From the NCBI GenBank assembly GCA_028688815.1, contig JAQTXJ010000001.1:20587-84586 (forward strand): DNA of 64,000 nt. The letters are read 5' to 3'. Origin of the DNA: a bacterium. Lineage in GTDB: Bacteria > Hydrothermota > UBA3073 > JACQXS01 > JAQTXJ01. Both the position numbers and the translations under genes were made by a program. The notes under the pieces are model-generated. The model had not been told where the DNA came from and made no database searches. It saw nothing but the letters and a program-made list of their open reading frames with translations. Shown one piece after another: positions 2,384 to 45,613 of this stretch (position 1 is the first letter of the stretch; each line of letters begins with the position of its first letter).

Positions 2384-2390
2384 ATTTTAA

Positions 2391-3362
<972 letters not shown>

Positions 3363-10188: not shown

Positions 10189-10239
10189 CATATAATTAAA
10201 CACAAAAATATAATATTATTGAAACAAAAGGAGGATTGG

Positions 10240-11111: not shown

Positions 11112-11114
11112 AAA

Positions 11115-12284: not shown

Positions 12285-12319
12285 AAAATTGAAAACTATT
12301 TTTAGATAGGAGGAGTAAG

Positions 12320-20761: not shown

Positions 20762-23700
20762 ATGTTTGTTTTGTTTTTTATTTTAATCCAGTCTAATATT
20801 ACTTTCCTGTTTGGTATACAGGCAAGCAGCTTAAAAGCTCTATCAGATACCACGGGAACTGCGACATACGGCATCAGTAGGACAGATTCAGTTTCTATTC
20901 CCTCAAAAGATACTACCAATACTTCAATAGATAGTTTACAATCAAACGATACGCTTCACATCGTTTCTCAACCTGATACTGGTATCGATATGTCTAGAAC
21001 TATAACTCTTTCGCCGGACTCCCTTTCTAATTCCGCCAAACAAAAGACAGACAGGGATACAAACTCTCTTGCTTTCTCGGACACCGCTTATAAGGATACA
21101 ACCACCCCTATTTTCCCGGATACTATTCCATTATTAAAAGCTTCTGATATCCTGCTAAAAGAAGTTTCAGGCTTTGAAACAAAATCAGAGATTTCTTTTC
21201 CAAAAGGAACATCCGGTTTTGGCGACAACACAGCATCCCACCCTAGTGATGAAAGCTTTATTATTAATTATAACACAAAAGACAGCGTATTTGTTACATT
21301 AAAAGCTACCCCATTATCGGAATTGTATAAAAATATGATGTTGTCGGGGTTTAAGTCAACATATTCGGAAATATTTACTGCAGGGGCACAAACAAGTAGA
21401 GGAACCGGATTAATTAAAGACATAGAATTACCAATAAATTTTCCAAAACCCATAGCCGGGATAATAGGACAAGGAGGAAAGCTTGATGTTTCAGGCAGTC
21501 AAAGAGTAGAGCTTGGAGGAAGTAAGCCAAAAAATTTTGATTATAAGCCCACAGAACAGACACACGAAAGTTGGTTTCCAAATCTTTCAATGAAACAACA
21601 TCTTACTGTAGACTTAAAAGGAACTATAGGAGAAAAAGTAAACGTATACATTAATCATGACTCCGAGCGTGAATTTGAGCTTGATAATACAATAAAACTT
21701 GAATATAAAGGAGATGAAGACGAGATAATACAGTCAATTAATGCCGGGAACACGGAACTTTCCTTACCCGGAGTACTTTTAATAGGAGGATCAACTCCGC
21801 ATAAAGGATTGTTTGGGATAAAAAGTCAGGCAAAAATAGGCCCCCTAAGCTTAACAACTATTGCTTCCAGGGAAGCAACAGAAAACCAGAGCACGACATG
21901 GGCAGGAGGTGGGAAAACAACTCAGGAAATAAAAATAGAAGATATAGACTTTGTGAAATCCAGGTTTTTCGCACTATTGCCACCCGATTATGTTAAAAGT
22001 CTGACAGATAGACACGATATATATTCCGGGAAAGTTGATTTATTGCCCCGACAAATATTAGATTTTAAAGTTTATAGAAGCAAAGAAGAACCAACTGCGC
22101 AGGACCAGACAAGAGCGGGGACAGCATTTGATATTGCAATCGATTCTAGTATTCCGGACACGTCTCTCCAATATCGATTTGTTCAGGAATTAGAAAATAG
22201 TTTCTTTTTGCTTGATACGGCTGGGATAGGAAGCGATTCAAGAATTCCCGTATTACAGCTGAATTATTCTTTATATTCCGGAGATTTATTAGCAGTACGG
22301 TGGACATATGTAAACAGGCTTGGAGAAACCGTTATGGTAGGAACGTATGACAGCACACAGACGATTTCAATTCAGAACGCGCAGGTAATTAAAAAAGATA
22401 GACATTTGGGACCAGCCGATACTGCCTATGCAAGCTGGTGGTATGAATTCAAAAATATATACTCATTGGGTTCTGACAGCCTTGATTTAACTAATTTTGA
22501 TATAAAAATATATAAACATAGTTATGGTGGAGGAGTAGATGAAGAAATAGACCCGACACATAACAATAAGCCCTATGTAACTCTATTAGGAATAAAAGAT
22601 ACGCTTAGGAACTTGGTAAATGGAAGACTAGATACGAGGTATGGTTTGATAGTATTTCCACAAAATTTTCCATTTATTGACACTGTATTAACAAGTAAAG
22701 ATTCGATTTATAATAAACCGGATTTATCGCCCGATAAAATTCAACCTAAATATTATATATGGGTACAATATAAAGGAACAACGAGAGATTATTCGCTTGG
22801 AATGATGAATATAATGCCAGGCAGTGAAGTAATAAAAGTAGGAGACATCACATTAAAAAGTGGCGAAGATTATGACATAGACTACGATATTGGACATATC
22901 ACATTTAAAACACCTCTTGTAGATAACCCAAATGCAAAAATAAGCGCTAATTTTCAGTATGTTCCATTTTTTCAGGCAGCGAGTAAAAATTTACTTGGCA
23001 TGAGAGGTGAAACAAAAATAGGAGAAAATGCACAATTATCTTCGGCTTTTATATATTATTCAACAAACTCGTTTGACACAAGACCACGATTAGGTTCAGA
23101 GCCGACAAGAATTCTATTAGGCGAATTAGTAGGAAGTGCCTCGTATAAACCCGATTTTCTAACAAAACTTGCGGATGGGTTACCTTTAGTTACTGCATCT
23201 GCCCCATCTTCTTTTACGATTCAGGGAAATGTAGGAACATCATTGCCTGATGCTAATACTAAAGGAGATGTATATATAGATGATATGGAAGGCGCAAAGT
23301 CTTCCACATCATTAGGAGTAACAAGAGGCGATTGGATTTTTGGAAGTAAACCAACTGGAATGGAGGATAATAATTTTGCACACCCCCAATGGTATAACCC
23401 TCATGATAATTTGCCCGATACAATTCTTTATCCTAATCTATCCGACCAAAAAAGAAAGGATACACGAACTTATTTAGTTTTACGAACACCTTCAGATAAT
23501 TGGAGATATGGAAATATGACTGATTCTTGCTGGACTACTCTACAAACCTGTTTGTCAGAGCGAGGAATGAGCTTTGCAGAAGAACAATACGTTGAAATAT
23601 GGGTAAAAGGCAACTCAGGTAAACTCCATCTTGATATTGGAAGTTATATACCTGAAGATGGAATGAGACGAGATATTAACGGTCAACTAAGGGGCAGAGG

Positions 23701-31843: not shown

Positions 31844-32092
31844 TTACTTCTCGTATCCTTCAACCGGGTTACACAAAGAGGTTCTGGTAGAAGCCGATGG
31901 TGTAAATTTTAGGACAAACTCCAATGCTTCAGATTCGTTCGGAGCTTCATACACTATTACAAAATCATGCGCTCCCAATAACTTAAGGAATTCTTTTATT
32001 TTTATATTTTCCGGCGCTTTATTTTTTTTAGTCAAATAAAATAAGTCTTCTGATTTCCCCGGTATTACATCCAGTGTGGTCATAAAAAGCAT
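31844..32092 (-). CDS. GYD-domain family small protein (copy 1)
   Basis: 82 aa; pattern MxxFxTLxxIPG...LLGAHDFVIVYEAPNESEA...STRTSL resembles the GYD domain (GxYDxVxIxEAPDxExA...TRT); AAGGGGG Shine-Dalgarno sequence. Confidence 0.5.
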   Translation of the reverse strand: MLFMTTLDVIPGKSEDLFYLTKKNKAPENIKIKEFLKLLGAHDFVIVYEAPNESEALEFVLKFTPSASTRTSLCNPVEGYEK

Positions 32093-32320
32093 TTTTCCCC
32101 CTTTTTAGTTTTTCTCTGTGAACTCTCTATTTAGTTAGAGTTCGTGACGAAAGAGCGTTTCCGCCTCAGGCGGAAACGTTACTCTGACTTATCCGACTTT
32201 GTTGGGCTCTTATTTCCATTTTGTTATCTGTTATTTTTTAAACCCTCAATTTTCCGTTTTCTGTGGACGGAGTTTACCCCGCCTTGGCGGGGTAGTTGAT
32301 CCTTCTGCCCCCTATTTCTC

Positions 32321-32560
32321 TTATCCTTCAACCGGGCTTGATAAAGAAGTCCTGGTAGAAGCTGCCGTTGTGAATTTCAAAACAAAATCCAATGCTTCAG
32401 ATTCATTCGGGGCTTCATATATAATCACAAAATCATGCGCTCCCAATAATTTGAGAAACTGTTTTATTTTTATGTTTTCCGGTGCCTTAACTTTTTTAGT
32501 CAAGTAAAGCAAATCTTCTATCTTCCCCGGTATCACATCAAGTGTGGTCATAAAAAGCAT
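32321..32560 (-). CDS. GYD-domain family small protein (copy 2, tandem paralog)
   Basis: 79 aa, about 85 percent identical to copy 1; same Shine-Dalgarno sequence. Confidence 0.5.
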   Translation of the reverse strand: MLFMTTLDVIPGKIEDLLYLTKKVKAPENIKIKQFLKLLGAHDFVIIYEAPNESEALDFVLKFTTAASTRTSLSSPVEG

Positions 32561-33033
32561 TCTTCCCCCTTTTTTATTTGTTTAATTTCTTTTATCTAAT
32601 ATAAAACAATTGCAATAAAACTTATATTTTAGCTAAAAATATTGTATTTTCAAAAAATGTCAACATTTTACTATAGTTTTTCTTTTTTTATCGGATAGGG
32701 TTTGGGGACGCAACCAAACTTTCATATGGTATACGGGTTCTAGCAAGCTCAAATCTGTGCTCCTACGATTCATATTTACAAGAACCTAAATTTTGTTCCA
32801 CCCTTTAATAGAAAATAAAATTCTTTCATACATTCCTTTCGAGTAAATTCTGCAAATTCAGATATGAAAAAGTGGTAGTAGATAGAATTACCACCATTTA
32901 CTTTAAATTTCTTTCAAAAAATATTTGACATCCATATGGGAAAATATATCTACGCTATAATCAATGTAAAAGAGTTTAAAACTGTTGACAATAGATTATA
33001 AAGGTACTATGAATTAGAAATAGAGAAAGCAAT

Positions 33034-34236
33034 ATGAACAAACGAGAAGAACTTTTATTTACGGCAGTTAAAACCGGTGATTTAGAAAAAGTAAAAGAAG
33101 CAATTAAATTTTCACTTCTATCCGGCAACGCAGATGTTAATATAAAAGACAGATACGGATATACCCCGCTAATCTGGGCATTAGAAAGAGGTTACAAAGA
33201 AATCGCAGAACTGCTTATTATTAAAGGCGCTGATGTTAGCGCAAAAAACAGGCAAGGCGACACCCCGCTAAACTTTGCATTGGACTATGGTTACGAAGAA
33301 ATCACAGAATTGCTTATTAATGAAGGCGCGGATGTTAATGCAAAAAACAGATATGGCGACACCCCGCTAATCCAAGCGTTGGAAAAAGGCTACAAGGAAA
33401 TCGCAGAATTACTCATCGATGAAGGCGCGGATGTTAATGCAAAAAACAGATACGGCGACATCCCCCTAATTCAGGCATTGGAAAAAGGCTACAAAGGAAT
33501 CGCAGAGTTACTTATTGATGAAGGGGCTGATGTTAATGTAAAAAATAATGACGGTGTTACCCCACTAATCTACGCCTTAGAAAAAGGCTACAAAGAAATA
33601 ATAGAACTACTTATCACTAAAGGCGCAGATGTTAACGTGAAAGACAAACAAGGCAACACTCCGCTAATCTGGGTGTTGGAAAAAGGCTATAAGAAAATCG
33701 CTGACTTGCTTATTAATAAAGGCGCAGATGTCAACGCTAAAGACAGATACGGGTATACCGTACTAATCCGGGCGTCGGAAAAAGGATACAAAGAAATAGT
33801 AGAATTGCTTCTTGCTAAAGGCGCAGATATCAATGCTAAAAATAATAATGGCGTTACCCCACTAATCCAGGTATCAGAAAACGGGCACAAAGAAATCGCA
33901 GAATTGCTTATCTCCAAAGGAGCAGATGTTAATGCAAAAACCATATATTACAATACCTCGCTAATTTGGGCATTGGGAAACGGGTACAAAGAAATTGCAG
34001 AATTGCTTATCACAAAGGATGCAGATGTCAATGCTAAAAATAATAATGGCATTACTCCGCTAATCCAAGCGTCGGAAAAAGGCTATAGAGGAATAGTAGA
34101 ATTACTCATTATTAAAGGCGCAGATGTTAACGTGAAAGACAGATACGGTAATACCCCGCTAATCTGGGCATTGGAAAAAGGCTATAAAGAAATCGCGGAA
34201 TTGCTTGTCAATAATGGGGCATACAGGAACTTATAA
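33034..34236 (+). CDS. Ankyrin-repeat protein (about 11 near-identical 33-aa repeats)
   Basis: Repeats of GYTPLIWALEKGYKEIAELLIxKGADVNAKNxxG; the repeats are also near-identical at the DNA level (99-nt period). Confidence 0.85.
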   Translation: MNKREELLFTAVKTGDLEKVKEAIKFSLLSGNADVNIKDRYGYTPLIWALERGYKEIAELLIIKGADVSAKNRQGDTPLNFALDYGYEEITELLINEGADVNAKNRYGDTPLIQALEKGYKEIAELLIDEGADVNAKNRYGDIPLIQALEKGYKGIAELLIDEGADVNVKNNDGVTPLIYALEKGYKEIIELLITKGADVNVKDKQGNTPLIWVLEKGYKKIADLLINKGADVNAKDRYGYTVLIRASEKGYKEIVELLLAKGADINAKNNNGVTPLIQVSENGHKEIAELLISKGADVNAKTIYYNTSLIWALGNGYKEIAELLITKDADVNAKNNNGITPLIQASEKGYRGIVELLIIKGADVNVKDRYGNTPLIWALEKGYKEIAELLVNNGAYRNL

Positions 34237-34289: not shown

Positions 34290-35786
34290 CTATTCTCCTT
34301 TCCTCATAAAATCCAATATATATCTTACGGAAAAGTAAACCACAGTCAAGCTAACCATCCAATAAACCGCTATCCATAAAGGATTAACACCTATAAACAT
34401 TAACCTGTTCCACCATGTAAATACCGTGTTGGAAGCATATAGAGACTCGTTAGATATCGCCGGAGGTGTATATTTGGCGCTTTCAAAAGTATGCAATGTT
34501 CCTAAAAATAAATTCCATAAATTTATAAATAAAATCTTTACGGTATCCCATAATTGTGGGTACCTGTAATAAAATACATATTCCATATCCTTATCCCAAA
34601 AGTAGCGTATTCTCCCGTGCCAGTTAACCAATGTCCCCGCAAATTGAATAAGCAAACTGTAAGCAGATAAAATATAAATAAAAAATCTTTTACTTGGCGG
34701 AAATTTGGGTTTTAACCAGTATCCTAAAGGCAGAATCAATAACGGAGTAATTTCGAGCGTATACCTTGGTCCCCAGCTAAAAAAATCCGACCACAGCAAA
34801 GTGCTTCCCAAAAGATAAAAAATCACAACGGATAATATTAATATGCATTCTTTCTTCTTTTCTCTAAAAAATTGATTCCAACCCAATATCGATAATATTA
34901 AAATTGGTGAATATAAAAATATGTTCTTATTCTTATTAAAAACTGTTTTTTGGACTCCTATCGCAATAGAGTCGATATAGTAATACCCTTTATTTAATAC
35001 TGTTCTTGCGCTTGGACTTATGAAAAAACCACCGGTCCTTATCCAATTATACCATCCCCAAAGAAAAAAGAAAGGAGCCACTCCTATTAAAAAAACAAAT
35101 ATTATCTTGAAGTTTTTTTCCCTTAACGCAATCAAAAATATAAAAACAAAAACAAAGAAAAGAAAAACATACGAGAGGTCCCTTGTATTAATAGTTAATC
35201 CTGCAAAAACTCCACAAAAAACTAAATACCATAATCTCTGTTTTTTTAAAAATTCAAATAAGAAATATAATGAGCTCACTATAAACAACATATTTAGATT
35301 CCCTTCGTAATTCGTAGAAGAATAAGGAAAAACAATTGTTAAAAAAGCTAAACATAATGTAGTATAAAAAGATACTTTAAGCGACATTCCAAGGGAACAA
35401 AGCAGTGAAAAGAAAACCACACATGCTAATGCATTAACGACAACACCGGTTAATGCTCCCCAAAAAGATATAACCTGTTTAACACCCCCATCCTTATGTA
35501 TTACTTTACTTACAATTGGTTCGCACATAGCTATAGGAGTCATTAGGAAAACATTTGTAATCCCATGCCAATCATACCAATCTCCGTTTTTCCCCTGGAC
35601 TAATAAAGTATCATTTGTCTGTTTAGCCAGAGACGGAGAATGTCGTTGAACTAAATTTCGGGATATTTCCAACTGAAAATCCGCTTCGACCCAAGGAAGC
35701 CCCTTGGCAAACAACAAATATATCGCTGCTATTAAAAAGAAAAGAGAAGTTTTGAATTTCAATAAACTATTACACGGAATTGACAT
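34290..35786 (-). CDS. Polytopic membrane protein, GT-C-fold glycosyltransferase-like (ArnT/PMT-family-like)
   Basis: 498 aa with more than 10 predicted TM helices and an N-proximal GDWYDW loop motif; divergent from the adjacent deacetylase/formyltransferase/GT2 genes. Confidence 0.4.
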   Translation of the reverse strand: MSIPCNSLLKFKTSLFFLIAAIYLLFAKGLPWVEADFQLEISRNLVQRHSPSLAKQTNDTLLVQGKNGDWYDWHGITNVFLMTPIAMCEPIVSKVIHKDGGVKQVISFWGALTGVVVNALACVVFFSLLCSLGMSLKVSFYTTLCLAFLTIVFPYSSTNYEGNLNMLFIVSSLYFLFEFLKKQRLWYLVFCGVFAGLTINTRDLSYVFLFFVFVFIFLIALREKNFKIIFVFLIGVAPFFFLWGWYNWIRTGGFFISPSARTVLNKGYYYIDSIAIGVQKTVFNKNKNIFLYSPILILSILGWNQFFREKKKECILILSVVIFYLLGSTLLWSDFFSWGPRYTLEITPLLILPLGYWLKPKFPPSKRFFIYILSAYSLLIQFAGTLVNWHGRIRYFWDKDMEYVFYYRYPQLWDTVKILFINLWNLFLGTLHTFESAKYTPPAISNESLYASNTVFTWWNRLMFIGVNPLWIAVYWMVSLTVVYFSVRYILDFMRKGE

Positions 35787-36146
35787 TTTCTTCTGCTCCC
35801 GCTTGTTAACTTTTTTCTGTAACCAAACAATAAACTATAATTTTATTAAAATTTTTTGTCAACCTTAATAAGAAAACAGGAAGAAAATATTGACAGAATG
35901 CTATTCTTTAGTAATTTATTAAAACATAGGGTATACTCAGACTACTGACAATAAGCTGTAAAACAAGGATAAAAACTGAAAAAGATTAGAATTTTAATAG
36001 GTAGCGATACGGCATTTACGCTGCAAGCGCCTGAAATAAAATATACTCTTCAAACACTACTTACCATCGCCGGATTCCCATGGGAATTTGTAAAAGAAGA
36101 GAATTCAAACAATGAAATTGATGTTTATTATGGGCACGATAAAAAT

Positions 36147-37421
36147 GTGAAGTGCAAGCTTCATATTATACCGTTATGTTTAAACTCTATTATGATAGAT
36201 ACGCCTATTAAGATAATTTACGATAAAGAAATCCCATTCCTTTTTTTTGACGAAATTAGCATTAAAGATAAAGTCTATTATTTAGATAATGATAAAACGC
36301 TTTTGGCAAATGATATAATTTTTTCTTCTTTCTATTTGCTGACAGGTTGGAATGAAAAATTTATAAATAGGGACAAAAAAGACAGGCACAATATTCAACA
36401 ATCGTTTCTCTACCAAAACAATCTACTGCACACGCCAATCGTAAATAAATATGCAGACATATTGTTAAATGTTTTCAGTAAAAGTCACCGGCCTCTTCCA
36501 TCCTGGCCTTACGGTAAAAAATACGCCGTTGCTTTGTCCCACGATATTGATTACCCGGTGATGATAAAATGGATAGAAGCAATAAGATATTGCGCAAAAA
36601 ACAAACCAAATATTAATCCTGTTAAAATATTCGATATATTGTTCGGGAAAGAAACTTTCTGGAACTTTGAAAAATGTATGGAATTGGAAACAAGCCACTG
36701 TCTGAAATCTGCTTTTTATTTTTGCGGGTATAAAGGAAACCTATTACGCTATTTATTATACGCGCCAGACCCATTTTATGATGTCTCCGATAAAAAGTTC
36801 TATCAATTGTTTGAGACTCTGAAAAATCACGGTTTTGAAATAGGAATGCATGCAAGTTATCTTGCATACAAATCTGTGAATTCTTTTAAATCCGAAAAAC
36901 AAAAAATAGAATCCGTCCTGGGCAAAAACATTACAGGCAATCGTCATCACTACTGGCACTGGAACCAAAACGATGCTGCACAGACATCGATAATTCACAA
37001 TGAAATAGGACTGGTATACGATTCCAGCATTTGTTTCGAAAAACACAGCGGGTTCCGTTACGGCATAAGCAGCCCTTTTCATTTGTACGATTCTAATACC
37101 TCTTCCCGGGTTGATACTTTACAACTGCCACCGAGTTTGATGGATGCTCAATTATTTGATTTTAGAAAAGAATCGAATTTTACAAAATATGAAGATATGA
37201 TAGATTCGCTTATAAATAATGCCAGGTCTTCGAGCGGAGTTTTTGTTGTTGACTTTCATCCAAGAACACTGAATAATACGCTTTTCCCTGAATGGGGAGA
37301 TAGTTACACGTATTTACTAAATGCAGTCTGCAAAAATGATGATTTCTTTTGCGATACTCCCGGGGGAATAGCCAATTACTGGTTGGAAAGAGAAAAAAAA
37401 TTATTAGAGGCATCCCTATGA
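36147..37421 (+). CDS. Polysaccharide deacetylase (NodB-homology) family protein, ArnD-like
   Basis: ALSHDIDYP (hydrophobic-x-x-D-h-D) and a His-rich NRHHYWHW block reminiscent of NodB/ArnD motifs; GTG start at 36147 (alternative ATG 36192). Confidence 0.35.
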   Translation: MKCKLHIIPLCLNSIMIDTPIKIIYDKEIPFLFFDEISIKDKVYYLDNDKTLLANDIIFSSFYLLTGWNEKFINRDKKDRHNIQQSFLYQNNLLHTPIVNKYADILLNVFSKSHRPLPSWPYGKKYAVALSHDIDYPVMIKWIEAIRYCAKNKPNINPVKIFDILFGKETFWNFEKCMELETSHCLKSAFYFCGYKGNLLRYLLYAPDPFYDVSDKKFYQLFETLKNHGFEIGMHASYLAYKSVNSFKSEKQKIESVLGKNITGNRHHYWHWNQNDAAQTSIIHNEIGLVYDSSICFEKHSGFRYGISSPFHLYDSNTSSRVDTLQLPPSLMDAQLFDFRKESNFTKYEDMIDSLINNARSSSGVFVVDFHPRTLNNTLFPEWGDSYTYLLNAVCKNDDFFCDTPGGIANYWLEREKKLLEASL

Positions 37422-38191
37422 ATATTGTCGTTTTAACAAATAAAAATAGCAATTTTGGTAAAAAAGTATTGAACAGGTTAATCCTTGACGGCCTCAAAGC
37501 TAATGCCGTAATCGTAATTAAACAACCACCAAGCTATAACCTAAAATTATTTAATTCCGTAAAAAAAAGAGTAGGTATTTGGGATGCTTTATGCTTTTCC
37601 ATAGAAAAAATATTCCAGGGAGAAAAACACCTAAGAGATGAAAAACCAATAATAACCGACTATTCTAAATTAGCACAACAGGTATTTTTTACCCGAGGAA
37701 CAAATACTATCCAAACAATAAATATCCTTAAAATGCTGAGCCCTGATATTTTAATCCTAGGACAAACCGGAATAGTTAAAAAGGAAATCCTTGAAATACC
37801 AAAACTTGGGACATTGAATGCACATCCCGGGATTCTACCGTTTTATCGCGGTATAGATTGCTGGAAATGGGCTGTTTATAATAACGAATTTGATAAAATA
37901 GGATGCAGTGTCCACTGGGTAGATACAGGTGTTGATACGGGAAACATAATTGCCGTAAAGAGGAACGATATTAGCAACCCGGATTTTGCTTGTATTGAAA
38001 ATACGCTTTACGATAATTGTATTTTATTGCTTTCCAATGTGTTACAAAGATTAAAAACTTCTTATATTGAAGGGACTAAACAAGAAAAAGAAACCGGCAA
38101 ACAATACTATAAAATGTCTAAAAAGTTAGAAAAAACAGTTAAAGATAAATTAGAAAATATTGCAGTAAGAACCGACCGTAAAAAAATATAA
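37418..38191 (+). CDS. Formyltransferase-domain protein (Fmt/PurN/ArnA-N or sugar N-formyltransferase-like)
   Basis: NAHPGILPFYRG matches the formyl-transferase catalytic motif (N..H..SLLPxxRG); ATGA overlap with the upstream gene. Confidence 0.6.
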   Translation: MNIVVLTNKNSNFGKKVLNRLILDGLKANAVIVIKQPPSYNLKLFNSVKKRVGIWDALCFSIEKIFQGEKHLRDEKPIITDYSKLAQQVFFTRGTNTIQTINILKMLSPDILILGQTGIVKKEILEIPKLGTLNAHPGILPFYRGIDCWKWAVYNNEFDKIGCSVHWVDTGVDTGNIIAVKRNDISNPDFACIENTLYDNCILLLSNVLQRLKTSYIEGTKQEKETGKQYYKMSKKLEKTVKDKLENIAVRTDRKKI

Positions 38192-38196
38192 TTGTT

Positions 38197-39141
38197 ATGA
38201 AGCCATCCGTTATTATACCTAAAGACAAAGGAGTATTAAAAAATCATATTGATTTAAGCATATCTATCGTTCATCATAAAAATAAAGAATTTTTAGAAAA
38301 ATGTCTCGACTCTATATTTAAGGAAACTAAAAACATAACCTTTGAAATATTTGTAATAGATAATTGTTCGAATGATAAAATACCGGAATTGATTGAAAAA
38401 AAATACCCCGGAATTACCTTAATCAGGAACAATCAGTCAGAAGGATTTGCAAGCAATCACAACAAAGCATTAAAACTGGCAAACGGGCGGTATTTACTTA
38501 TCCTGAATAACGATACTATTATTTTAGATTCTGCCTTCGATAAAATGGTAAAATTTATGGATACAAACTCAATCATAGGAGCGCTTGGATGTAAAATGTA
38601 CTTAACAGAAAAAATGGATTCCGCATCCCCGCCACCTTCAAAGTACTCTTTTACCCCTTTTAGAGAATTCTGGGACAGTTTAGTCGGACATTCCGGGATA
38701 CAAAAAATATTCTACAATTCCCCTCTGATTTACAACCCCGGATGCAGTACCGCAGGTCCGAAAGCAGTTGACACGGAAAACGAAGTGGCACATATAAGCG
38801 GGGCATGTATGATGGTGCGCAAAGAAGTAGCAACGCAAGTAGGGTTAATGGACGAAAACTATATGATGTTTCTTGAGGAAACGGATTGGTGTTATCGAAT
38901 AAAAAAACAAGGTTGGAAAATGTATTATTATCCGAAAGCTTATATAATCCATTACGGCTCAAAATCATTAGGTTACTTTGAAAACACCAGAAAAAAACTA
39001 CACGAGGAAAGCCTTGCTTATTTTTTCAAAAAACACTACGGTGCCGGTGGATTTCTTTTATTCAAGATGTTAAGAATTGTCCTATTTCCCATAATGTCTA
39101 TTCATAAATTATACTTAAAAATAACATACCCTCAAAAATAA
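38197..39141 (+). CDS. Family 2 glycosyltransferase
   Basis: LSISIVHHKNKEFLEKCLDSI...FVIDNCSNDK (GT-A fold, DxD region). Confidence 0.7.
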   Translation: MKPSVIIPKDKGVLKNHIDLSISIVHHKNKEFLEKCLDSIFKETKNITFEIFVIDNCSNDKIPELIEKKYPGITLIRNNQSEGFASNHNKALKLANGRYLLILNNDTIILDSAFDKMVKFMDTNSIIGALGCKMYLTEKMDSASPPPSKYSFTPFREFWDSLVGHSGIQKIFYNSPLIYNPGCSTAGPKAVDTENEVAHISGACMMVRKEVATQVGLMDENYMMFLEETDWCYRIKKQGWKMYYYPKAYIIHYGSKSLGYFENTRKKLHEESLAYFFKKHYGAGGFLLFKMLRIVLFPIMSIHKLYLKITYPQK

Positions 39142-39146
39142 AACTT

Positions 39147-40271
39147 ATGAAAATCTTACTGGCCGGAAATTTTCCTTGTGATGAGAAACTTGGTTCACCC
39201 AAAATACTCATTAAACTCGGGAAAGAATTAGAAAAAAAGGGACACTTTGTTAAGTATATATTTAGCGAAGACTTAAAAACCGCCTTGCCGACAAAACATT
39301 TACGATACTTTAATTCTCCCCTTGCCGTGTTTTTTGCAGTCAGAAAATATTATAAGTTATACAAGGGGTTTGATATTGTCCAGATTGCCTCGGGAGATGG
39401 TTTTATATGGGGACTCTATAAAAGACTTCTAAAACTGAATAACAAATATATATGTTTATCCATAGGACTTGAACACCTGGATGAAAAAATCAGGAAAGAA
39501 AACGAAAAACTCGGATTGCTGAAATTATCTTTAATACATAAAATAGGGTTTAGCGTAAGGCTTAGAAGCGTGGAATTATCAATAAAACTAAGTGATACGA
39601 CAATATGTTTAAACAGCGTTGATAAAGATTTTATCGTTCAGCATTGTTCCATAAAAGCAGAAAAAATAAAAGTAATACCTGCCGGAGTGTCTAAAAAGTT
39701 TTTTCTAAAACAAAAAAAATCCTCTTCCGGCAAAAATTCATTATTGTATGTCGGGACGTGGATTCCAAGAAAAGGAGTAAAATACCTTGCTGATGCATAT
39801 TCGATACTTGCAAATAAAATTGATAATCTGAGTTTGACTATAGTCGGCGGCGTAGAAACAGAAGAAACAATTAAATCCGAATTTTCACAAAACATAAGAA
39901 ATAAAGTTCAGATAATTCCGTTAGTTCCTGAAGAAGAGTTGGTTAATATATACGGGAATTATACTATTTTTGTTTTCCCTACTCTTTGCGAAGGTTTCGG
40001 TATGGTATTTTTAGAAGCTATGGCATCAGGACTTGCAGTAATAACAACAAACGCGGGTGGAGCAATAGATATAATAGAAAATAACATAGACGGGATTATC
40101 ATTCCTGAACGGAATACTGACGCTATTGTTTCTGCAGTTGAAAAACTCATATATGACAACAATCTATTGTTGGAAATTGGAACAAAAGCAAGAGAAAAAG
40201 CTAGAAATTTTGTATGGGAAAATATGGCAGAAAAAATAATCAAGACATACGAAAAAATAACCTTGCGATGA
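39147..40271 (+). CDS. Family 4 (group 1) glycosyltransferase
   Basis: C-terminal FVFPTLCEGFGMVFLEAMASGLAVITTNAGG (E-x7-E-like GT-B motif). Confidence 0.75.
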   Translation: MKILLAGNFPCDEKLGSPKILIKLGKELEKKGHFVKYIFSEDLKTALPTKHLRYFNSPLAVFFAVRKYYKLYKGFDIVQIASGDGFIWGLYKRLLKLNNKYICLSIGLEHLDEKIRKENEKLGLLKLSLIHKIGFSVRLRSVELSIKLSDTTICLNSVDKDFIVQHCSIKAEKIKVIPAGVSKKFFLKQKKSSSGKNSLLYVGTWIPRKGVKYLADAYSILANKIDNLSLTIVGGVETEETIKSEFSQNIRNKVQIIPLVPEEELVNIYGNYTIFVFPTLCEGFGMVFLEAMASGLAVITTNAGGAIDIIENNIDGIIIPERNTDAIVSAVEKLIYDNNLLLEIGTKAREKARNFVWENMAEKIIKTYEKITLR

Positions 40272-40360
40272 AATATGGAGAATTCTCAAGTTAAAATTGA
40301 CAAAAGACTTCGGTGAAATTATATTTATTAAAAACTCTTAGGGATTAAAAATTACTTAAT

Positions 40361-41137
40361 ATGATACTATTTATTATTCCGGCATACAATGAAGAGAAGA
40401 ACATTCCTACTCTATTAAAAGAGATAGAATGCTTTGCTAAAAATTACAAATGCCGGATAATTATTGTTAATGACGGGAGCACAGACAAAACCGAAGAGAT
40501 AGCAACATCTTTCAAAAATAAACTTCCGGTAGAAGTTCTTACTCATCCTACGAATAAAGGTCCCGGGGAAGCTTTTAAAACAGGTTTTTCTTATGTTTTA
40601 AAAGAGGCAAAAGAGGAAGACATTATCATAACTAAAGAAGCTGATAATACCGGGGATGATTCCATATTACCGGTTATGATAAAAAAAATATTGGAAGGAA
40701 ACAATTTAGTTATCGCCTCCTGTTATGCAAGGGATGGAGAAATAATCGGCACTACATTTATCCGTAAAGCTTTAAGCTATGCCGCGAATATATTCTTAAG
40801 AATACTTTACCCGCATCTAAAAGTAAAAACTTACAGTTCCTTCTATCGCGCTTATTCTGTTAAGCTCTTAAAAAAGGCATATAAAATTTACGGGAATAAC
40901 TTCATAAAAGAAAAAGGATTTATTGTTATGACAGAAATACTAATAAAATTAAGTAGATTAAAAGATACAAAGATAGCGGAAATTCCCACAGTATTGAAAT
41001 GTGATAATAGGGTAGGCAAAAGCAAAATGATTGTATTAAAAAACATCCTTGATTATTTATGTTTTATTCTTAAAGACACCCTTGATAGGATTTACAAAGT
41101 TGATATAAACAATAGATACCAAGATTACCCGGATTAA
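40361..41137 (+). CDS. Polyprenol-phosphate glycosyltransferase, DPM1/ArnC-like GT2
   Basis: IIPAYNEEKNIPTLL...IIIVNDGSTDKTEEIA N-terminus typical of Dpm1/ArnC/GtrB-like enzymes; own TTGACA promoter upstream. Confidence 0.7.
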   Translation: MILFIIPAYNEEKNIPTLLKEIECFAKNYKCRIIIVNDGSTDKTEEIATSFKNKLPVEVLTHPTNKGPGEAFKTGFSYVLKEAKEEDIIITKEADNTGDDSILPVMIKKILEGNNLVIASCYARDGEIIGTTFIRKALSYAANIFLRILYPHLKVKTYSSFYRAYSVKLLKKAYKIYGNNFIKEKGFIVMTEILIKLSRLKDTKIAEIPTVLKCDNRVGKSKMIVLKNILDYLCFILKDTLDRIYKVDINNRYQDYPD

Positions 41138-41139
41138 GA

Positions 41140-42498
41140 ATGAAAAAATTACTTGGTTTTTCCGCATTTACAATTAGCATAATCATCATATATTCTTTAA
41201 TTAATTTTATTGGAATATCCCTAACAAAAACAGGAGTAGAAAATAAACTGTTATTTGGGATACTAATTCTTTTTAAGACAATTTTAATAACACTCTGGTT
41301 ATCGGGAATTACTTATAAAAAACTCTGGGATAAAAATACTTTAAGAAACAAAACTTCCCGAATTATCTGGAGTTTAACACTAATCGTTGTTTTTATACTC
41401 CTTAACTCTTCTTTATTATTATTAGATAGAACAAGTAAATTATATAAACATATAAAGGGACCGTCTTGTGGATGGAAAGGAAAACTGTGGCAGTCAGACA
41501 CAACATTAGGCACCAGGCCAATACCGAATGCAAAAGGATTTGAGACTTTTGTGATAAGTAAAGACGTGCCAATAAAGTTTGACAGGAATGGATTTAGGGT
41601 TCCCGTTTTCTGCACTGATACAACAATTAAAAGGCCTTTATTTTTATTTCTGGGATGCTCATTTACTTTCGGAATGGCTTGCCCGGCAGAAGAAAGTTTT
41701 CCCTACATAGTTTCCCAGGATACAAAAGGTTCCTCAATGAATGCCGGAATATGCGCAGGCGGACTTTCCCAGATGCTTTTATTATCCCGGGAATTAGTCC
41801 CTCATTATAAACCTGATTTTGTAATAGTGCAATACTCGCCGTGGTTAGCCCAAAGAGCCACATTGATGGGAGCCCCGACATATATTGCAGTAACACCGGT
41901 ACCTTATATCTCTAAAACTAAAGACGGAAAAAATGTAATAAGTCCAATTGCTTTTAATTCAAAAACGCTTGATTTAAATATAGAAAAGTTTAGAGGAACT
42001 CCCAAAAACATAAGAGACTATACTTGTTTTTTGTTTGAAATAGCAATACCTTTATACTTACACGATGTTTATTATAGAACTATAACAGCCTTAAAAAAAA
42101 TACTGGGGAAAATTCCAAAACCGGATAAAAACATTAAAGATATAGAACAATTTGCATACAGCAATATTTATGATGTTTGCAAACAAAATAACAGTAAAAT
42201 GATTATTCTTAACCTCGGGGATATTACATATACAAAAAATTCCCATACCCTTATATTGCCTGATAGTAATATTATTTTTGCAGAAGCGGATTCTCTCTTG
42301 TTCCGCAGACTGAAGTCTCCCGACGAATACAATAAAGAATATATGCACTGGTGTTTTAATGGGAAGGATTCCGTTATAGAAGATGTACACCCGACATATA
42401 AAGCAAACAAAATAATAGCAGAAGCTATAGTCACCACGATAAAAGAAAACACCCCAAAAACGAATCTCTCTTATAGCTGCGATAAGACAAAAAAATAG
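41140..42498 (+). CDS. Membrane-anchored SGNH/GDSL-hydrolase-like protein (possible polysaccharide O-acyl transferase/esterase)
   Basis: Two N-terminal TM segments; LFLFLGCSFTFG resembles SGNH block I (GDSxxxG with Asp replaced by Cys). Confidence 0.35.
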   Translation: MKKLLGFSAFTISIIIIYSLINFIGISLTKTGVENKLLFGILILFKTILITLWLSGITYKKLWDKNTLRNKTSRIIWSLTLIVVFILLNSSLLLLDRTSKLYKHIKGPSCGWKGKLWQSDTTLGTRPIPNAKGFETFVISKDVPIKFDRNGFRVPVFCTDTTIKRPLFLFLGCSFTFGMACPAEESFPYIVSQDTKGSSMNAGICAGGLSQMLLLSRELVPHYKPDFVIVQYSPWLAQRATLMGAPTYIAVTPVPYISKTKDGKNVISPIAFNSKTLDLNIEKFRGTPKNIRDYTCFLFEIAIPLYLHDVYYRTITALKKILGKIPKPDKNIKDIEQFAYSNIYDVCKQNNSKMIILNLGDITYTKNSHTLILPDSNIIFAEADSLLFRRLKSPDEYNKEYMHWCFNGKDSVIEDVHPTYKANKIIAEAIVTTIKENTPKTNLSYSCDKTKK

Positions 42499-42509: not shown

Positions 42510-42617
42510 ATGCCCCTGAGAAAGATTATACTGAGTTTTAAAGGCAAAATGGCTGTAATGAAAAATATTCTTGACTATTTGCGCTTTATCGTTAAAGATA
42601 ATATTGAGAGGAATTGA
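42510..42617 (+). pseudogene. Remnant (35 codons) of the C-terminus of a second DPM1/ArnC-like GT2 gene
   Basis: The translation ...ILSFKGKMAVMKNILDYLRFIVKDNIERN aligns to the C-terminus of the 40361..41137 product (VLKCDNRVGKSKMIVLKNILDYLCFILKDTLDR), and the two DNAs are about 70 percent identical over about 80 nt. Confidence 0.6.
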
Positions 42618-42634
42618 GGGGATATTTAATTAAA

Positions 42635-45613
42635 ATGAGGAACAAATTATTTGCAGGAGGAATATTATTTTTCTTCTGTTTGAATGTTAATGCAAATTCG
42701 TGGGTTCAAAATGACTGGAGTAATGGCGATTCCCAGCTTATCTGGACGGATTCCACAAAATACCTGTCCGCAAATAACATTGAAACGAATAATGGCGTTT
42801 CATTATCCACAGAAACACCTTTAAAAGCTACCCCTTTATTAAATACCAATAAAGTATGGAGTATGACAAAAGGAGTTCGAGGAGATACAAATTTAATTTT
42901 TGCAGGGGTAGAAAGTACTGGGATAGACGTATGGATGAGTTTGGACAATGGAGAAACATATCAACTGGGGTGGCACTCTTTATATGGTGGGGAAGATATT
43001 GTCAAAAAAGTAACCACTTTATGTTGGAACAACTCTAATTCCTCCCTGTTAGTTGGCTGTTATATTCACGAATGGGGAGAGGAATATTATATCGAACCTA
43101 TTACAGAATTTGGCAAAATGAATTTCCCCAATCTTTTAACATACGGAAGTAATCCTAAATATACTTATTCTATGATAGCTTTTTCTGATACTATACTTAT
43201 CGGGGGCGGGGAGAATTCTTATATCCTTCGTTCCGTGAATAACGGGGCAAACTGGTCAAGTATTTCTATGGCAGACACCAGGATAATTTCTTTGCTCAAA
43301 TCTCTTGATGGAAACGTATATGCCGGTTCGGGCACCAATCTTGGATTGGTACTAAAATCCGTAGATAACGGGGCAAACTGGACTGCCGTGTTTGCTACTA
43401 CTCAAAAATCCGTTTTTTCATTAATCGAGGGACCGGACAGCACAATTTATGCCTCCACAGGCGACAGCGGAAAAATCTTCAAAACTAAAAACGGCTGGGG
43501 CACTCACGATACTACTACGCCTATCCCAAATGCCCGTGAAGTCAGATTGATTTGCGATTCGCTGGGAACTCTTTATGCAGGTGTGTCCTGCATGGATGAC
43601 AGCGCACGAGTCTTTTATTCTTCGGATAAAGGAACCAGCTGGACACAAATAGGCGGGACTCTTTGCCAGGGGAAAATCTCATCAATGATATTCACAAGTA
43701 ATCAATGCCTTCTGGTAGGGACTGACCACAATGGAACAATATTCAGATTGGCAAAATATGTTCCCGCAGGAAGTCTTATATCTTCTATATATAATACCGG
43801 AGAAAGCAATAGAAATGCTACAAGGTATTACACTAAAATAGAATGGGACGGGGATTACAACGGTCAAGATATTATCGTAAAAATTAGAAGTTTTCAGGAC
43901 ACTATCGGCTTTAGCGATACTCTTTCCTGGACAAATTGCCCTCCTTGCACAAGCGGACAATTGCTGTCAACCGTATCATCGGTGGATAATAACGACCAGT
44001 TTATTCAATATAAAATAGATTTTCTTGCTTCCCCATCATTCGTTACTCCCGTACTTCATAATATCACTACGACATATTCTTTCGTTGATACCGCAGGCCC
44101 TCTACTTACCAGCGCAACCGCTACCGGAGATGAAATTTACAATCCTCCGAATTCTTTTACACCAAATGATAAAGTTACTCTTTCCTTCGACGAGAGAATA
44201 GATACCCTTATCGTAAATAACTCAAATATTGATTCTATACTTAAATTAAGTGGCGGACATAAATGGATAAGTGATTCTGCGGTCTGGGATACGGCTTATA
44301 AAAATCTTACCGTTACTTTAAGCGATATTTCACAGGTTATGATAGGAGACACCGTTTTCCCACGCAAATCCCAAACCGACAGTTTAACGGATAAATGGGG
44401 AAACCAGTGCGTCTCCCCTTGTATTATTACGGGAACTTTTGCTCCCTATATTGATTCCATCGTTGCATACGACGGGCAGGATTCCATTGAATACATTGAT
44501 TCCGACGATTACATAACTCTTTACTTTTCAAAACGCACAAACAAAAAAAGTATCAATGCCGCAAACATAAATAATATACTCCGCCTTCGCAATCATTCAT
44601 GGCTGGATGCCAAAGCGCATATGGGGTCCTGCGTATGGGATTCCCTTGGGTTTGCTCTGGTTTGCAGCCTAAAAACAGACAGTCTCCGACCAACGATTGC
44701 AGTCGGTGATACGATATTCCCGGATTCCGTTAACATAAAAGATAAATTTCTTAAGGGCGCAGTAATCGCTCCCTGTATAATTAAAGGAACTTTCGGGCAA
44801 TACGGTCCTGTTCCCGACAGCGCAATTGCTTATGAAGGCAGTCCACAAGAAAGCGGAATAGGCAACGGGGATTATATTCTCGTTTACTTTAACAAGCTTA
44901 TACAAGATATTCAATGGGGAAACTTAGATCTGGATACCGTTTTGACTCTTAAAAAAGCAGGCGTCCAACACACATGGTATCCTCCTACCGAAAGTCTTAT
45001 TTGTACGGCTCAGGCAGTTGAACAACAAGACTTGATGGGCATTAAATACACATTACTTTTCATATCTTTTGTAGACACTACTACGGGAACAGAAGAAACA
45101 ATCATCCAATATAATGCTGGTTTATCCGTGTTTCCAAATCCTTCTAACTCTCAGGCATCCATATCTTTTACCGTACCGGGACTTGCAATCGGCAATAATC
45201 CAAAATCCGTAATCCAAAATCTAAAATCTAAAATCCAAAATCCTTTAATATCCATAGGGGATACTATTTTCCCGGATTCTAATCTGATTAAAGACACAAG
45301 CAACAGAAAATGCAAAAAGGCAGTATGCATTACCGGGGGATTTTCCAAATCCGACATTAAATCTTTCCTCTTAAAATCTTCCGTTAAAAAATCTCAGCCG
45401 ACATTATCCGGATCTTTGGTGTCCATAAAAATATACAATGTAAGCGGACAGCTTGTAAGAACACTTATGAACACTCCCCAAAAATCCGGTACATATACCG
45501 CATTGTGGGACGGCAAAGATGACCATTCGCATAAAGTAAACGCAGGTATGTATATATGCAAATTAAGCCTTAACAATCAAACGCTTACGCAAAAAATAGT
45601 TCTCTTGAAATAA
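42635..45613 (+). CDS. Secreted BNR/Asp-box repeat protein with a T9SS C-terminal sorting domain
   Basis: Signal peptide; Asp-box motifs SLDNGETY, SVNNGANWS, SVDNGANWT, SSDKGTSWT; C-terminal KIYNVSGQLVRTL...GMYICKL...KIVLLK typical of the Por secretion tail; ATG 42635 chosen. Confidence 0.7.
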   Translation: MRNKLFAGGILFFFCLNVNANSWVQNDWSNGDSQLIWTDSTKYLSANNIETNNGVSLSTETPLKATPLLNTNKVWSMTKGVRGDTNLIFAGVESTGIDVWMSLDNGETYQLGWHSLYGGEDIVKKVTTLCWNNSNSSLLVGCYIHEWGEEYYIEPITEFGKMNFPNLLTYGSNPKYTYSMIAFSDTILIGGGENSYILRSVNNGANWSSISMADTRIISLLKSLDGNVYAGSGTNLGLVLKSVDNGANWTAVFATTQKSVFSLIEGPDSTIYASTGDSGKIFKTKNGWGTHDTTTPIPNAREVRLICDSLGTLYAGVSCMDDSARVFYSSDKGTSWTQIGGTLCQGKISSMIFTSNQCLLVGTDHNGTIFRLAKYVPAGSLISSIYNTGESNRNATRYYTKIEWDGDYNGQDIIVKIRSFQDTIGFSDTLSWTNCPPCTSGQLLSTVSSVDNNDQFIQYKIDFLASPSFVTPVLHNITTTYSFVDTAGPLLTSATATGDEIYNPPNSFTPNDKVTLSFDERIDTLIVNNSNIDSILKLSGGHKWISDSAVWDTAYKNLTVTLSDISQVMIGDTVFPRKSQTDSLTDKWGNQCVSPCIITGTFAPYIDSIVAYDGQDSIEYIDSDDYITLYFSKRTNKKSINAANINNILRLRNHSWLDAKAHMGSCVWDSLGFALVCSLKTDSLRPTIAVGDTIFPDSVNIKDKFLKGAVIAPCIIKGTFGQYGPVPDSAIAYEGSPQESGIGNGDYILVYFNKLIQDIQWGNLDLDTVLTLKKAGVQHTWYPPTESLICTAQAVEQQDLMGIKYTLLFISFVDTTTGTEETIIQYNAGLSVFPNPSNSQASISFTVPGLAIGNNPKSVIQNLKSKIQNPLISIGDTIFPDSNLIKDTSNRKCKKAVCITGGFSKSDIKSFLLKSSVKKSQPTLSGSLVSIKIYNVSGQLVRTLMNTPQKSGTYTALWDGKDDHSHKVNAGMYICKLSLNNQTLTQKIVLLK
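45202..45243 (+). repeat. Heptanucleotide microsatellite (AAAATCY)x6 inside the BNR/T9SS cargo CDS
   Basis: aaaatcc gtaatcc aaaatct aaaatct aaaatcc aaaatcc, read directly; the 42 nt are currently in frame. Confidence 0.8.

Follow-up and report, generated by a model that had tools for sequence, protein, structure and literature searches.

A bacterial glycan gene cluster with a VimE-related putative deacetylase and an N-formyltransferase as a candidate system for N-acyl editing of envelope sugars

Introduction

From where might a sugar N-formyltransferase obtain an amine to formylate when no aminotransferase gene lies nearby? This question is raised by a cluster of seven genes at positions 34290-42498 of a 64,000-nucleotide stretch of contig JAQTXJ010000001.1 (GenBank assembly GCA_028688815.1), hereafter the window, in which the gene for a predicted formyltransferase overlaps that for a deacetylase-like protein. 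In the known routes to N-formyl sugars, the amine that receives the formyl group has been installed by a pyridoxal phosphate (PLP)-dependent aminotransferase on a 3- or 4-keto sugar. Our Pfam scan of the window covered open reading frames (ORFs) of at least 150 amino acids (aa; 45 listed), and among these, as the initial annotation of the cluster had stated, there is neither a DegT-type aminotransferase nor a UDP-glucuronic acid (UDP-GlcA) decarboxylase.

That annotation had likened four of the gene products to the lipid A aminoarabinose (Arn) toolkit, with the hedge that the cluster might encode a formylated amino-sugar decoration instead of a canonical Arn pathway. ORF listing and profile searches bear out the seven ORFs that it described, which are arranged as one minus-strand gene and a divergent plus-strand operon of six genes. 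We find that the resemblance to Arn proteins holds at the level of family and fold, that membership of the Arn pathway does not hold, because every Arn model scores far below its cutoff, and that comparative data favor the hedge. Our preferred reading, to which we assign somewhat less than an even chance, is that the cluster is a surface-glycan or glycolipid decoration operon organized around an N-acyl editing pair that would exchange N-acetyl for N-formyl.

A VimE-related putative deacetylase coupled to a sugar N-formyltransferase

The first gene of the operon, which we call DAC (35976..37421, plus strand), encodes a 481-aa protein in which a DUF7033 domain (a 56.3-bit Pfam match on ORF 36147-37421) is joined to a CE4-fold, N-deacetylase-like region. 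The gene had previously been listed with a GTG start at position 36147 and a 424-aa product, which is too short. There are about 280 homologues, and those that are full-length are typically about 486 aa long and align over 100% of the 35976-37421 translation. The 57 codons upstream of GTG 36147 align with homologue N-termini, and in an alignment of 20 sequences the initiating methionine of the homologues ('MKPVRIIIG...') falls exactly on CTG 35976 ('LKKIRILIG...'). Furthermore, the frame is closed by an in-frame TAA at 35970-72, no ATG, GTG or TTG codon occurs from there to GTG 36147, and CTG 35976 and the open frame that follows it are conserved in three independent assemblies. DAC therefore appears to use a non-canonical start, either CTG 35976 or possibly ATT 35985, and we set the gene at 35976-37421 because of the position of the homologue methionine and the conservation in three assemblies. 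The Logan and JGI contig gene calls (424 and 443 aa) are shortened versions of the same protein.

The best sequence model for DAC is the NCBIfam entry 'UDP-2,3-diacetamido-2,3-dideoxy-glucuronate deacetylase VimE' (106.9 bits, E 9e-31, profile positions 66-416 of 431), and on this evidence DAC is a homologue of VimE, but no equivalog. The description of DAC as a NodB/ArnD-like deacetylase stands at the level of the CE4 fold. It does not extend to sequence, which lies nearer to VimE than to NodB or ArnD and gives no match to Pfam Polysacc_deac_1. Likewise, neither single-sequence nor profile searches of the PDB returned a match to DAC, and only fold searches gave any; it is in these that the CE4 and ArnD likeness is seen, with an AF2 model built from the homologue alignment (predicted local distance difference test, pLDDT, of 91.8). 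Invariant histidine and aspartate residues (H189, D190, D192, H292, H324, H325, D349, D390 and H428) are consistent with a metal-dependent amidohydrolase. The protein has no signal peptide and no transmembrane (TM) segment and is therefore predicted to be cytoplasmic. Its family is sizeable, with 236 representatives (at 50% identity) at E <= 1e-30 and 3230 at E <= 1e-10.

Immediately downstream, the gene that we call FMT (37418..38191, plus strand) encodes a stand-alone N-formyltransferase of 257 aa when counted from its ATG, rather than the 280 aa given initially. The FMT start codon (37418-37420) and the DAC stop codon TGA (37419-37421) share bases in an ATGA overlap, as had been reported and as bases 37418-37421 confirm, and by virtue of this overlap the two genes are expected to be translationally coupled. 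FMT matches Formyl_trans_N with 73 bits (gathering cutoff 26.1), and its best matches in the PDB are WbkC, a GDP-perosamine N-formyltransferase (5vyt, 44.8 bits), and ArnA (39.5 bits). Across 12 orthologues, residues Asn134, His136 and Asp173 do not vary, and they line up with the WbkC motif. The earlier assignment to an ArnA-N-like formyltransferase domain is thus upheld at the level of family, and judged from the domain match and these residues FMT belongs to the sugar N-formyltransferase family with its catalytic Asn-His-Asp triad intact. The motif that had been quoted in its support, HxSLLPxxRG, is present in the form HxxxLPxxRG; the actual residues are H-P-G-I-L-P-F-Y-R-G, with G-I in place of S-L.

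Other formyltransferase functions were considered and rejected. The initial annotation had itself named a purine-biosynthesis (GART-type) enzyme as the outcome that would contradict its assignment, and the family claim survives, since FMT scores 47.5 bits against the PurN cutoff of 150. The Met-tRNA formyltransferase model Fmt gives 45.7 bits (cutoff 201.5), and FMT is also far below the cutoff of the PurU equivalog model. We dropped a purine or Met-tRNA role because of these low scores, because the best solved matches are sugar formyltransferases, and because FMT is coupled to a sugar-modifying gene. The ArnA equivalog model is likewise distant (55 bits, cutoff 777).

Relatives of DAC pair with several N-acyltransferase families

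If DAC and FMT act as a unit, then their association should extend beyond this window. We scanned one genome per species and recovered 131 DAC relatives, from which 80 loci (79 non-redundant) were kept; ORFs in these loci were called, neighbors were clustered and cluster representatives were annotated. Gene calling was crude, and the count of loci with an acyltransferase partner given below is thus a lower bound. The loci come from Chloroflexota, Gemmatimonadota, Acidobacteriota, Bacteroidota, Planctomycetota, Nitrospirota, Nitrospinota, Dependentiae, Spirochaetota and other phyla, and cultured carriers include Anaerolinea thermolimosa IMO-1 and Chloroflexus sp. MS-G.

An N-acyltransferase is adjacent or fused to DAC in at least 57 of the 79 loci, and the family of this partner varies. 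Formyl_trans_N proteins occupy the position in 13 loci, hexapeptide (LbH) transferases in at least 21, and HGSNAT/Acyl_transf_3 membrane acyltransferases in 12. A long (843-895 aa) or split form of DAC is present in at least 11 loci. The DAC is 843-895 aa long in ten loci (L049, L029, L030, L040, L043, L055, L071, L072, L077 and L085), among which L049 alone was Pfam-scanned; in this Nitrospira metagenome-assembled genome (MAG) the 843-aa protein (9989-12520) is a fusion of DAC with a C-terminal Acetyltransf_6/FemAB (VimA-like) domain. An approximate neighbor-joining tree resolves three DAC clades that track partner type, and the DAC of the window falls in the FMT clade.

The DAC-FMT pair is conserved across at least six phyla, and two glycosyltransferases of the cluster, a GT2 enzyme (GT2b) and a GT-C membrane enzyme, recur with it. 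Of the 79 loci, 39 have a GT2b homologue (130-234 bits) within 7 kb of DAC; where each flank extends for 5 kb or more, the figure is 22 of 40. A GT-C gene recurs near DAC in every locus type, mostly of the PMT_2 type, the exceptions being YfhO (L014), DUF2298 (L006) and DUF6798 (L008). The core GT2b-DAC-FMT-GT-C is almost contiguous in L012 (Bacteroidia) and L038 (Planctomycetia) and partial in L008, L009, L010 and L014; this order or close variants of it are found in MAGs of Bacteroidia, Planctomycetia, Nitrospinota, Dependentiae and Spirochaetales. The functional link among DAC, FMT, GT2b and GT-C is strengthened by this conservation of gene order across phyla.

Three loci are particularly informative about the role of the partner. 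The gene order is NADepi-GT2b-WecB-DAC-LbH-GT-C in L013, WecB-NADepi-MT-GT2b-DAC-FMT-GT-C in L038 and NADepi-GT2b-DAC-FMT-GT-C in L012. Because LbH and FMT are exchanged at the same slot, they look isofunctional. In L038, WecB (UDP-GlcNAc 2-epimerase) scores 322 bits, above its cutoff, and the precursor at this locus would therefore be N-acetylated, without a free amine unless it is first deacetylated.

Several other features of the DAC loci are worth recording. Eight Chloroflexales loci (L044, L050, L052, L059, L060, L070, L074 and L082), which include those of cultured Chloroflexus and Chloroploca relatives, share a conserved cluster of about 12 genes that comprises genes for an acyl carrier protein (ACP)-like protein, an SDR, an AMP-binding enzyme, DAC, LbH, a WecB-like 2-epimerase, a second LbH, a TM-anchored GT2 resembling dolichol-phosphate-mannose synthase (DPMS), a B12-radical SAM protein and a PMT_2 GT-C. 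The cluster appears to encode a pathway devoted to an N-acyl amino sugar of an unusual kind. The ACP-like proteins of the Chloroflexota loci have no Pfam match, the assignment being made from the LLDSLGL motif alone. In an Anaerolineae MAG (L006, 310-2513), DAC overlaps a gene for a SAM-dependent methyltransferase, and some lineages might thus N-methylate the amine once it is freed. In a Bacteroidetes MAG (L004/L033, 11436-17900), DAC-FMT is followed on the opposite strand by genes for a UbiA prenyltransferase, an HAD phosphatase, a 9-TM protein, GT4 enzymes and a classical Polysacc_deac_1 protein, a set that is reminiscent of decaprenyl-phosphate-pentose type pathways. Finally, A. thermolimosa IMO-1 (NZ_DF967970.1) carries two copies of its DAC locus on one contig, L041 and L042 (at about 6.1 kb and 62.4 kb), with identical scores and gene spacing; either a segment of 9 kb or more has been duplicated, or the second copy is an artefact of the assembly.

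Glycosyltransferases and a candidate esterase complete the cluster

GT2b (40361..41137, plus strand, 258 aa) matches Glycos_transf_2 with 85.7 bits. Its best match in the PDB is the DPMS of Pyrococcus furiosus (5mlz, 72 bits, residues 4-238), followed by ArnC (9bhc and 8vxh, 32.8 bits to the ArnC structures) and GtrB (5ekp). These matches agree with the previous description of a DPM1/ArnC-like polyprenol-phosphate glycosyltransferase, and we presume from them that GT2b is a polyprenyl-phosphate sugar synthase. Among NCBIfam models, PpgS (41 bits) and ArnC (36.5 bits, cutoff 529) both fall below cutoff.

The minus-strand gene (34290..35786) encodes the GT-C membrane glycosyltransferase, a 498-aa, GT39/PMT_2-like protein that NCBI names 'glycosyltransferase family 39 protein'. 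It exceeds the PMT_2 gathering cutoff by a small amount (27.8 versus 26.1 bits) and matches the NCBIfam LA_3751/LA_3752 putative glycosyltransferase family with 68.6 bits, below the cutoff of 200. Sequence searches of the PDB, single or profile, gave no match, ArnT included. The AF2 model (pLDDT 82.9), which is all-helical with multiple TM segments, has 12 Foldseek matches in the PDB at E <= 1e-3, and all are GT-C enzymes: STT3, ArnT (5f15, E 1.1e-4), AglB, Pmt4 and PglB. The initial assignment to a GT-C membrane transferase is therefore sustained by both profile and predicted structure. An acidic residue in the first periplasmic loop (E34, consensus PWVEA) is visible in the alignment consensus only. 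We presume that this protein is a periplasm-facing transferase that uses a polyprenyl-phosphate sugar donor.

The remaining three genes of the operon are less widely associated with DAC. GT2a (38197..39141, plus strand, 314 aa) is a GT2 glycosyltransferase of the Leloir type (Glycos_transf_2, 77.7 bits; Glyco_tranf_2_3, 61.9 bits; weak NCBIfam matches to MftF-like and rhamnosyltransferase models) that is conserved beside DAC only in the close relative L002. The GT4 glycosyltransferase (39147..40271, plus strand, 374 aa) matches Glycos_transf_1 with 124.7 bits and has weak, sub-cutoff likeness to MshA, BshA and EpsE models. The last gene, U452 (41140..42498, plus strand), encodes a membrane-anchored protein of 452 aa that matches no Pfam or NCBIfam model. 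Among its homologues, which number at least 251, two carry PF13472 (Lipase_GDSL_2) and one is named SGNH/GDSL by UniRef. The invariant residues are G172-x-S174-x-T176-x-G178, N201 and D415-x-H417, and the family profile matches the SGNH thioesterase TesA weakly (E 8.6e-4, blocks I-II alone). It is plausible from these conserved residues and homologues that U452 is an SGNH-type esterase or acyltransferase.

Proposed function and competing explanations

Under the reading that we prefer, cytoplasmic DAC would strip a sugar of the hexosamine type, in the simplest case a UDP-N-acetylhexosamine (UDP-HexNAc), of its N-acetyl group, and FMT would re-acylate the freed amine with formate taken from N10-formyl-tetrahydrofolate. 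GT2b would then load the sugar onto polyprenyl phosphate, a flippase that is not among the cluster genes would flip the lipid-linked sugar across the membrane, and GT-C would transfer the sugar to an acceptor on the outward side of the cytoplasmic membrane. The acceptor glycan would be built or further decorated by GT2a, GT4 and the SGNH-like U452. In this scheme we infer the acetyl-to-formyl chemistry, the substrate, the acceptor and the order of the DAC, FMT and GT2b steps; the target of DAC could be the nucleotide sugar, its lipid-linked form or the finished glycoconjugate.

We favor deacetylation followed by re-acylation because DAC relatives pair with four different N-acyltransferase families. 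The fusion of DAC to a FemAB domain is a 'Rosetta stone' arrangement, and thus supports the logic in which VimE acts and VimA follows. Permanent re-acylation also makes sense of the Chloroflexota loci, in which an AMP-binding enzyme, an SDR and an ACP-like protein would supply the LbH transferase beside which they are encoded. The interchange of LbH and FMT at one slot and the N-acetylated precursor implied for L038 point the same way. Moreover, because there is no aminotransferase among the scanned ORFs of the window, deacetylation is the only source within the cluster of an amine that could be formylated.

Nine observations weigh against this interpretation. First, the cluster contains no flippase gene, nor a small multi-TM ORF. 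Second, the VimE score of DAC is far under the equivalog cutoff of 440. Third, a literature search for DUF7033 returned no papers, and the family is without biochemical data. Fourth, VimE itself is only a putative deacetylase (PMC7468200). Fifth, GT2b lacks a TM segment, unlike ArnC and GtrB, which have TM helices. Sixth, orthologues of GT-C (37-47% identity) elsewhere adjoin radical-SAM, methyltransferase and glycosyltransferase genes or lie in unrelated contexts, not beside DAC or FMT, and since they occur in such places the GT-C subfamily is not dedicated to this system. Seventh, the closest DAC homologues (L003, L006 and L007) precede a gene for a GT4 or a methyltransferase, and not one for an acyltransferase. 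Eighth, L012 and L038 also carry genes for a DegT aminotransferase and an SDR whose best models, although sub-cutoff, are UDP-4-keto-pentose synthase and ArnA-C. Ninth, a formyltransferase, an ArnC-like GT2, a CE4 enzyme and a GT-C are exactly the Arn enzyme set, and in that pathway the CE4 enzyme removes formyl.

This last point leads to the strongest of the competing explanations, which we nevertheless consider unlikely. Arn-type logic might be executed by non-orthologous enzymes: FMT would act on a UDP-amino sugar whose synthesis is encoded in another part of the genome, GT2b would transfer the N-formyl sugar to polyprenyl phosphate, DAC would remove the formyl group as an ArnD analogue, and lipid A or some other acceptor in the envelope would receive from GT-C a cationic sugar with a free amine. 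Neither the aminotransferase and decarboxylase nor ArnE/F were found in the window, however, and the nearer relationship of DAC to VimE than to ArnD also argues against this possibility. Transient protection and deprotection is implausible for those DAC partners that include LbH with an acyl-ACP supply and the FemAB fusion. A complete Arn-like set seemed conceivable for L012 and L038 and was rejected as not established, because the DegT protein of L012, with an above-cutoff score of 564 bits, is a dTDP-Fuc4N transaminase of the WecE type and not ArnB, and the SDR matches are sub-cutoff. In L038, the presence of WecB implies an N-acetyl precursor.

A second alternative, which strikes us as improbable, is editing after glycosyl transfer. 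GT4, acting by logic like that of MshA, BshA or PIG-A, or else GT2a, would place GlcNAc on a lipid or small molecule, DAC would deacetylate the conjugate in the manner of MshB, BshB or PIG-L, FMT would formylate it, and GT2b and GT-C would form a separate branch. In its favor, the closest DAC homologues L003 and L007 (about 50% identity) immediately precede a GT4 gene, the window GT4 is in the same operon as DAC, and that GT4 weakly resembles models for MshA (78 bits), BshA (70 bits) and GlcNAc-phosphatidylglycerol synthase (54 bits). These scores are far under the respective cutoffs, however, and it is GT2b and GT-C, not GT4, that are kept beside DAC across the family. In addition, MshB, BshB and PIG-L are deacetylases of another fold family, which is absent from the structural matches of DAC.

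Two further explanations are, in our estimation, very improbable. In Porphyromonas gingivalis, the free amine of a linking sugar is the attachment point for type IX secretion system (T9SS) cargo. The cluster might therefore constitute a Vim-like linking-sugar pathway that anchors such cargo, including a protein encoded directly downstream. DAC is related to VimE, the organism encodes SprA and cargo with Por_Secre_tail domains, and a cargo gene lies 3' of the operon both in the window and in L002. This adjacency is common to one close relative only, and DAC-FMT loci occur mostly in phyla that lack T9SS, such as Planctomycetota, Nitrospinota, Dependentiae and Acidobacteriota. The window lacks genes for VimA/FemAB, a domain seen solely in fusions of distant DAC relatives, and for WbpA/B/E/D, which make UDP-GlcNAc3NAcA. 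The P. gingivalis linking sugar offers a free amino-acid amine (PMC7468200), whereas an N-formyl group leaves no nucleophilic amine. The other such explanation, that the locus is a mosaic of adjacent glycan genes acting independently with no specific pathway logic, would accommodate the lack of conservation of GT2a, GT4 and U452 with DAC and the other contexts of GT-C orthologues, yet it sits poorly with the 4-bp overlap of DAC and FMT and with the presence of this pair in at least six phyla with recurring GT2b and GT-C.

Returning to acetyl-to-formyl exchange, the comparative data allow a broader proposal that we advance more tentatively still: enzymes combining DUF7033 with a CE4 fold may be the core of a widespread 'N-acyl editing cassette' in which an amine is unmasked, an interchangeable partner re-acylates it, and the product is delivered by way of polyprenyl phosphate and a GT-C. 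In the window, the outcome would be an aminotransferase-independent N-formyl hexosamine at the cell surface. The groups that are installed elsewhere may include 3-hydroxyacyl or other acyl groups, through a hexapeptide transferase with its own ACP, aminoacyl groups through FemAB, and possibly methyl.

Relationship to known systems

The Arn (PmrHFIJKLM) system is like the cluster in that the same four enzyme classes (Formyl_trans_N, a polyprenyl-phosphate-type GT2, a CE4-fold amidohydrolase and a GT-C) occur in one locus, and in that the implied route runs from cytoplasmic sugar editing to a lipid carrier and on to periplasmic transfer. In the Arn pathway, the formyl group is first placed on the UDP-amino sugar, and ArnD removes it after the ArnC step. 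ArnC transfers the formylated sugar to undecaprenyl phosphate (PMC12690121). The cluster is unlike Arn in several respects: ArnB, ArnA-C and ArnE/F are absent from the window, FMT is stand-alone, GT2b is devoid of membrane helices, GT-C is GT39/PMT_2-like, and the ArnA and ArnC models are far from satisfied. DAC also has an extra N-terminal DUF7033 domain, and its family pairs with non-formyl acyltransferases, which suggests an order opposite to that of Arn, namely deacylation first and formylation second. A literature search that combined formyltransferase, deacetylase and undecaprenyl-phosphate retrieved a lipid A review alone.

With the Wbp/Vim pathway of P. gingivalis and Tannerella forsythia, the cluster shares a homologue of VimE that aligns over almost its full length, relatives of that homologue fused to a VimA-like domain, and the same proposed logic of N-acyl exchange. 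Veith et al. proposed that, in P. gingivalis, the 2-N-acetyl group is taken off by VimE and replaced with Ser or Gly by VimA (PMC7468200). The differences are that DAC reaches 107 bits against the VimE cutoff of 440, that its partner is a formyltransferase and not FemAB, that the window is without Wbp genes, and that the cluster routes its sugar through a DPMS-like GT2 and GT-C, whereas Vim uses the GT4 VimF to build an undecaprenyl-diphosphate (Und-PP)-linked repeat.

A third group consists of the three-component systems FlmF2/NaxD/FlmK of Francisella, LgmA/LgmC/LgmB of Bordetella and PpgS/Rv3779 of mycobacteria, wherein a GT2 makes polyprenyl-phosphate-HexNAc, which is the substrate of a cytoplasmic deacetylase, and transfer of the sugar outside the membrane is the task of a GT-C. 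As these systems are generally described, the cluster resembles them in its combination of GT2, deacetylase and GT-C, and GT2b has the weak PpgS match noted above. The NaxD and LgmC deacetylases belong to the YdjC family, not to CE4/DUF7033, and systems of the FlmF2/NaxD/FlmK type leave a free amine and are not known to include a re-acylating enzyme. As for the N-formyltransferases WbkC, ArnA-N, PseJ, WlaRD and FdtF, FMT has in common with them the Formyl_trans_N fold and the Asn-His-Asp triad, WbkC being its best solved match. It is unlike them in lacking a linked aminotransferase, the amine being proposed to arise by deacetylation, and its similarity to characterized members is at most 45 bits.

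The cluster thus resembles a hybrid of Arn (carrier, GT-C and formyltransferase), Vim (deacetylase, then re-acylation) and FlmF2/NaxD/FlmK (GT2, deacetylase and GT-C). We count it as a member of none of these because the defining components are absent or far below curated cutoffs.

Genomic setting of the cluster

The six genes of the operon are tightly packed, with intergenic gaps of -4, 5, 5, 89 and 2 bp in order, and the GT-C gene lies, as annotated, divergent from the operon across a spacer of 189 bp (35787..35975). Synteny extends over the entire cluster in a relative with a 96% identical DAC, and the spacer is 96% conserved in the relatives L001 and L002. Within the spacer is a -35/-10-like site (TTGACA-17-TATAGT, minus strand, 35862-35834). 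A near-consensus site (TTGACA-17-TATATT, plus strand) at 40297-40325 falls in the 89-bp gap between GT4 and GT2b, the sole sizeable gap within the operon, and is a possible internal promoter for GT2b-U452. Scans for promoters and terminators gave site counts no higher than expected from shuffled sequence, and both sites are thus descriptive only.

The window comes from a MAG whose NCBI proteins MDD2889049-068 are encoded on a 139-kb contig. Upstream, the cluster is flanked by genes for ValRS, PlsY, a penicillin-binding protein (PBP) and an ankyrin protein, and downstream by genes for a T9SS cargo protein and for MgsA, trigger factor and ClpP, all of which are housekeeping or unrelated genes. 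The initial annotation had linked the cluster to the genes for GDP-mannose dehydratase and epimerase at 256-3362. These do not belong to it; a distance of 31 kb and no fewer than 15 housekeeping genes lie between, the intervening genes including those for ExbBD/TonB, DnaX, POR, Rho, FtsK, SprA, the PBP, PlsY and ValRS.

SprA, the T9SS translocon, is a 1977-aa protein with an SprA_N domain (20762-26695), and two large cargo proteins (42614-45613, directly 3' of the operon, and 48540-51017) carry C-terminal Por_Secre_tail/FlgD_ig sorting domains. These genes suggest that the source MAG lies in or near the Fibrobacteres-Chlorobi-Bacteroidetes (FCB) group. The ankyrin protein (33034-34236, plus strand, 400 aa) consists almost entirely of 11 near-identical ankyrin repeats and is encoded between GYD genes and the GT-C gene; it is conserved in the close relative L002. 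Such arrays are unusual in free-living bacteria. A tandem duplication (31845-32111 and 32313-32579; 267 nucleotides, 83% identity, 468-nucleotide spacing) corresponds in position to two minus-strand genes of L002 for 82-aa GYD-domain proteins; in the window, the first copy only (31844-32092) was Pfam-tested. A second, unrelated GT-C of 938 aa (54916-57732, minus strand) has a TMEM260-like protein O-mannosyltransferase domain fused to TPR repeats.

Concluding remarks

The DUF7033/VimE-like family is sizeable, has no characterized member and offers a modular logic that can be tested. If our interpretation is correct, then a deacetylase and a formyltransferase working from ordinary N-acetyl sugars would constitute a second, simpler and aminotransferase-independent route to N-formyl sugars. 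The fusions of DAC and FemAB would at the same time provide independent genomic support for the proposed order, VimE and then VimA, in the formation of the linking sugar of P. gingivalis A-lipopolysaccharide (A-LPS). N-acyl groups of envelope sugars determine antigenicity, susceptibility to phages and antimicrobial peptides and, in Bacteroidota, protein anchoring. The pairing of DAC with four N-acyltransferase families, a DPMS-like GT2 and a GT-C suggests that bacteria of many phyla have a general way to diversify these groups.

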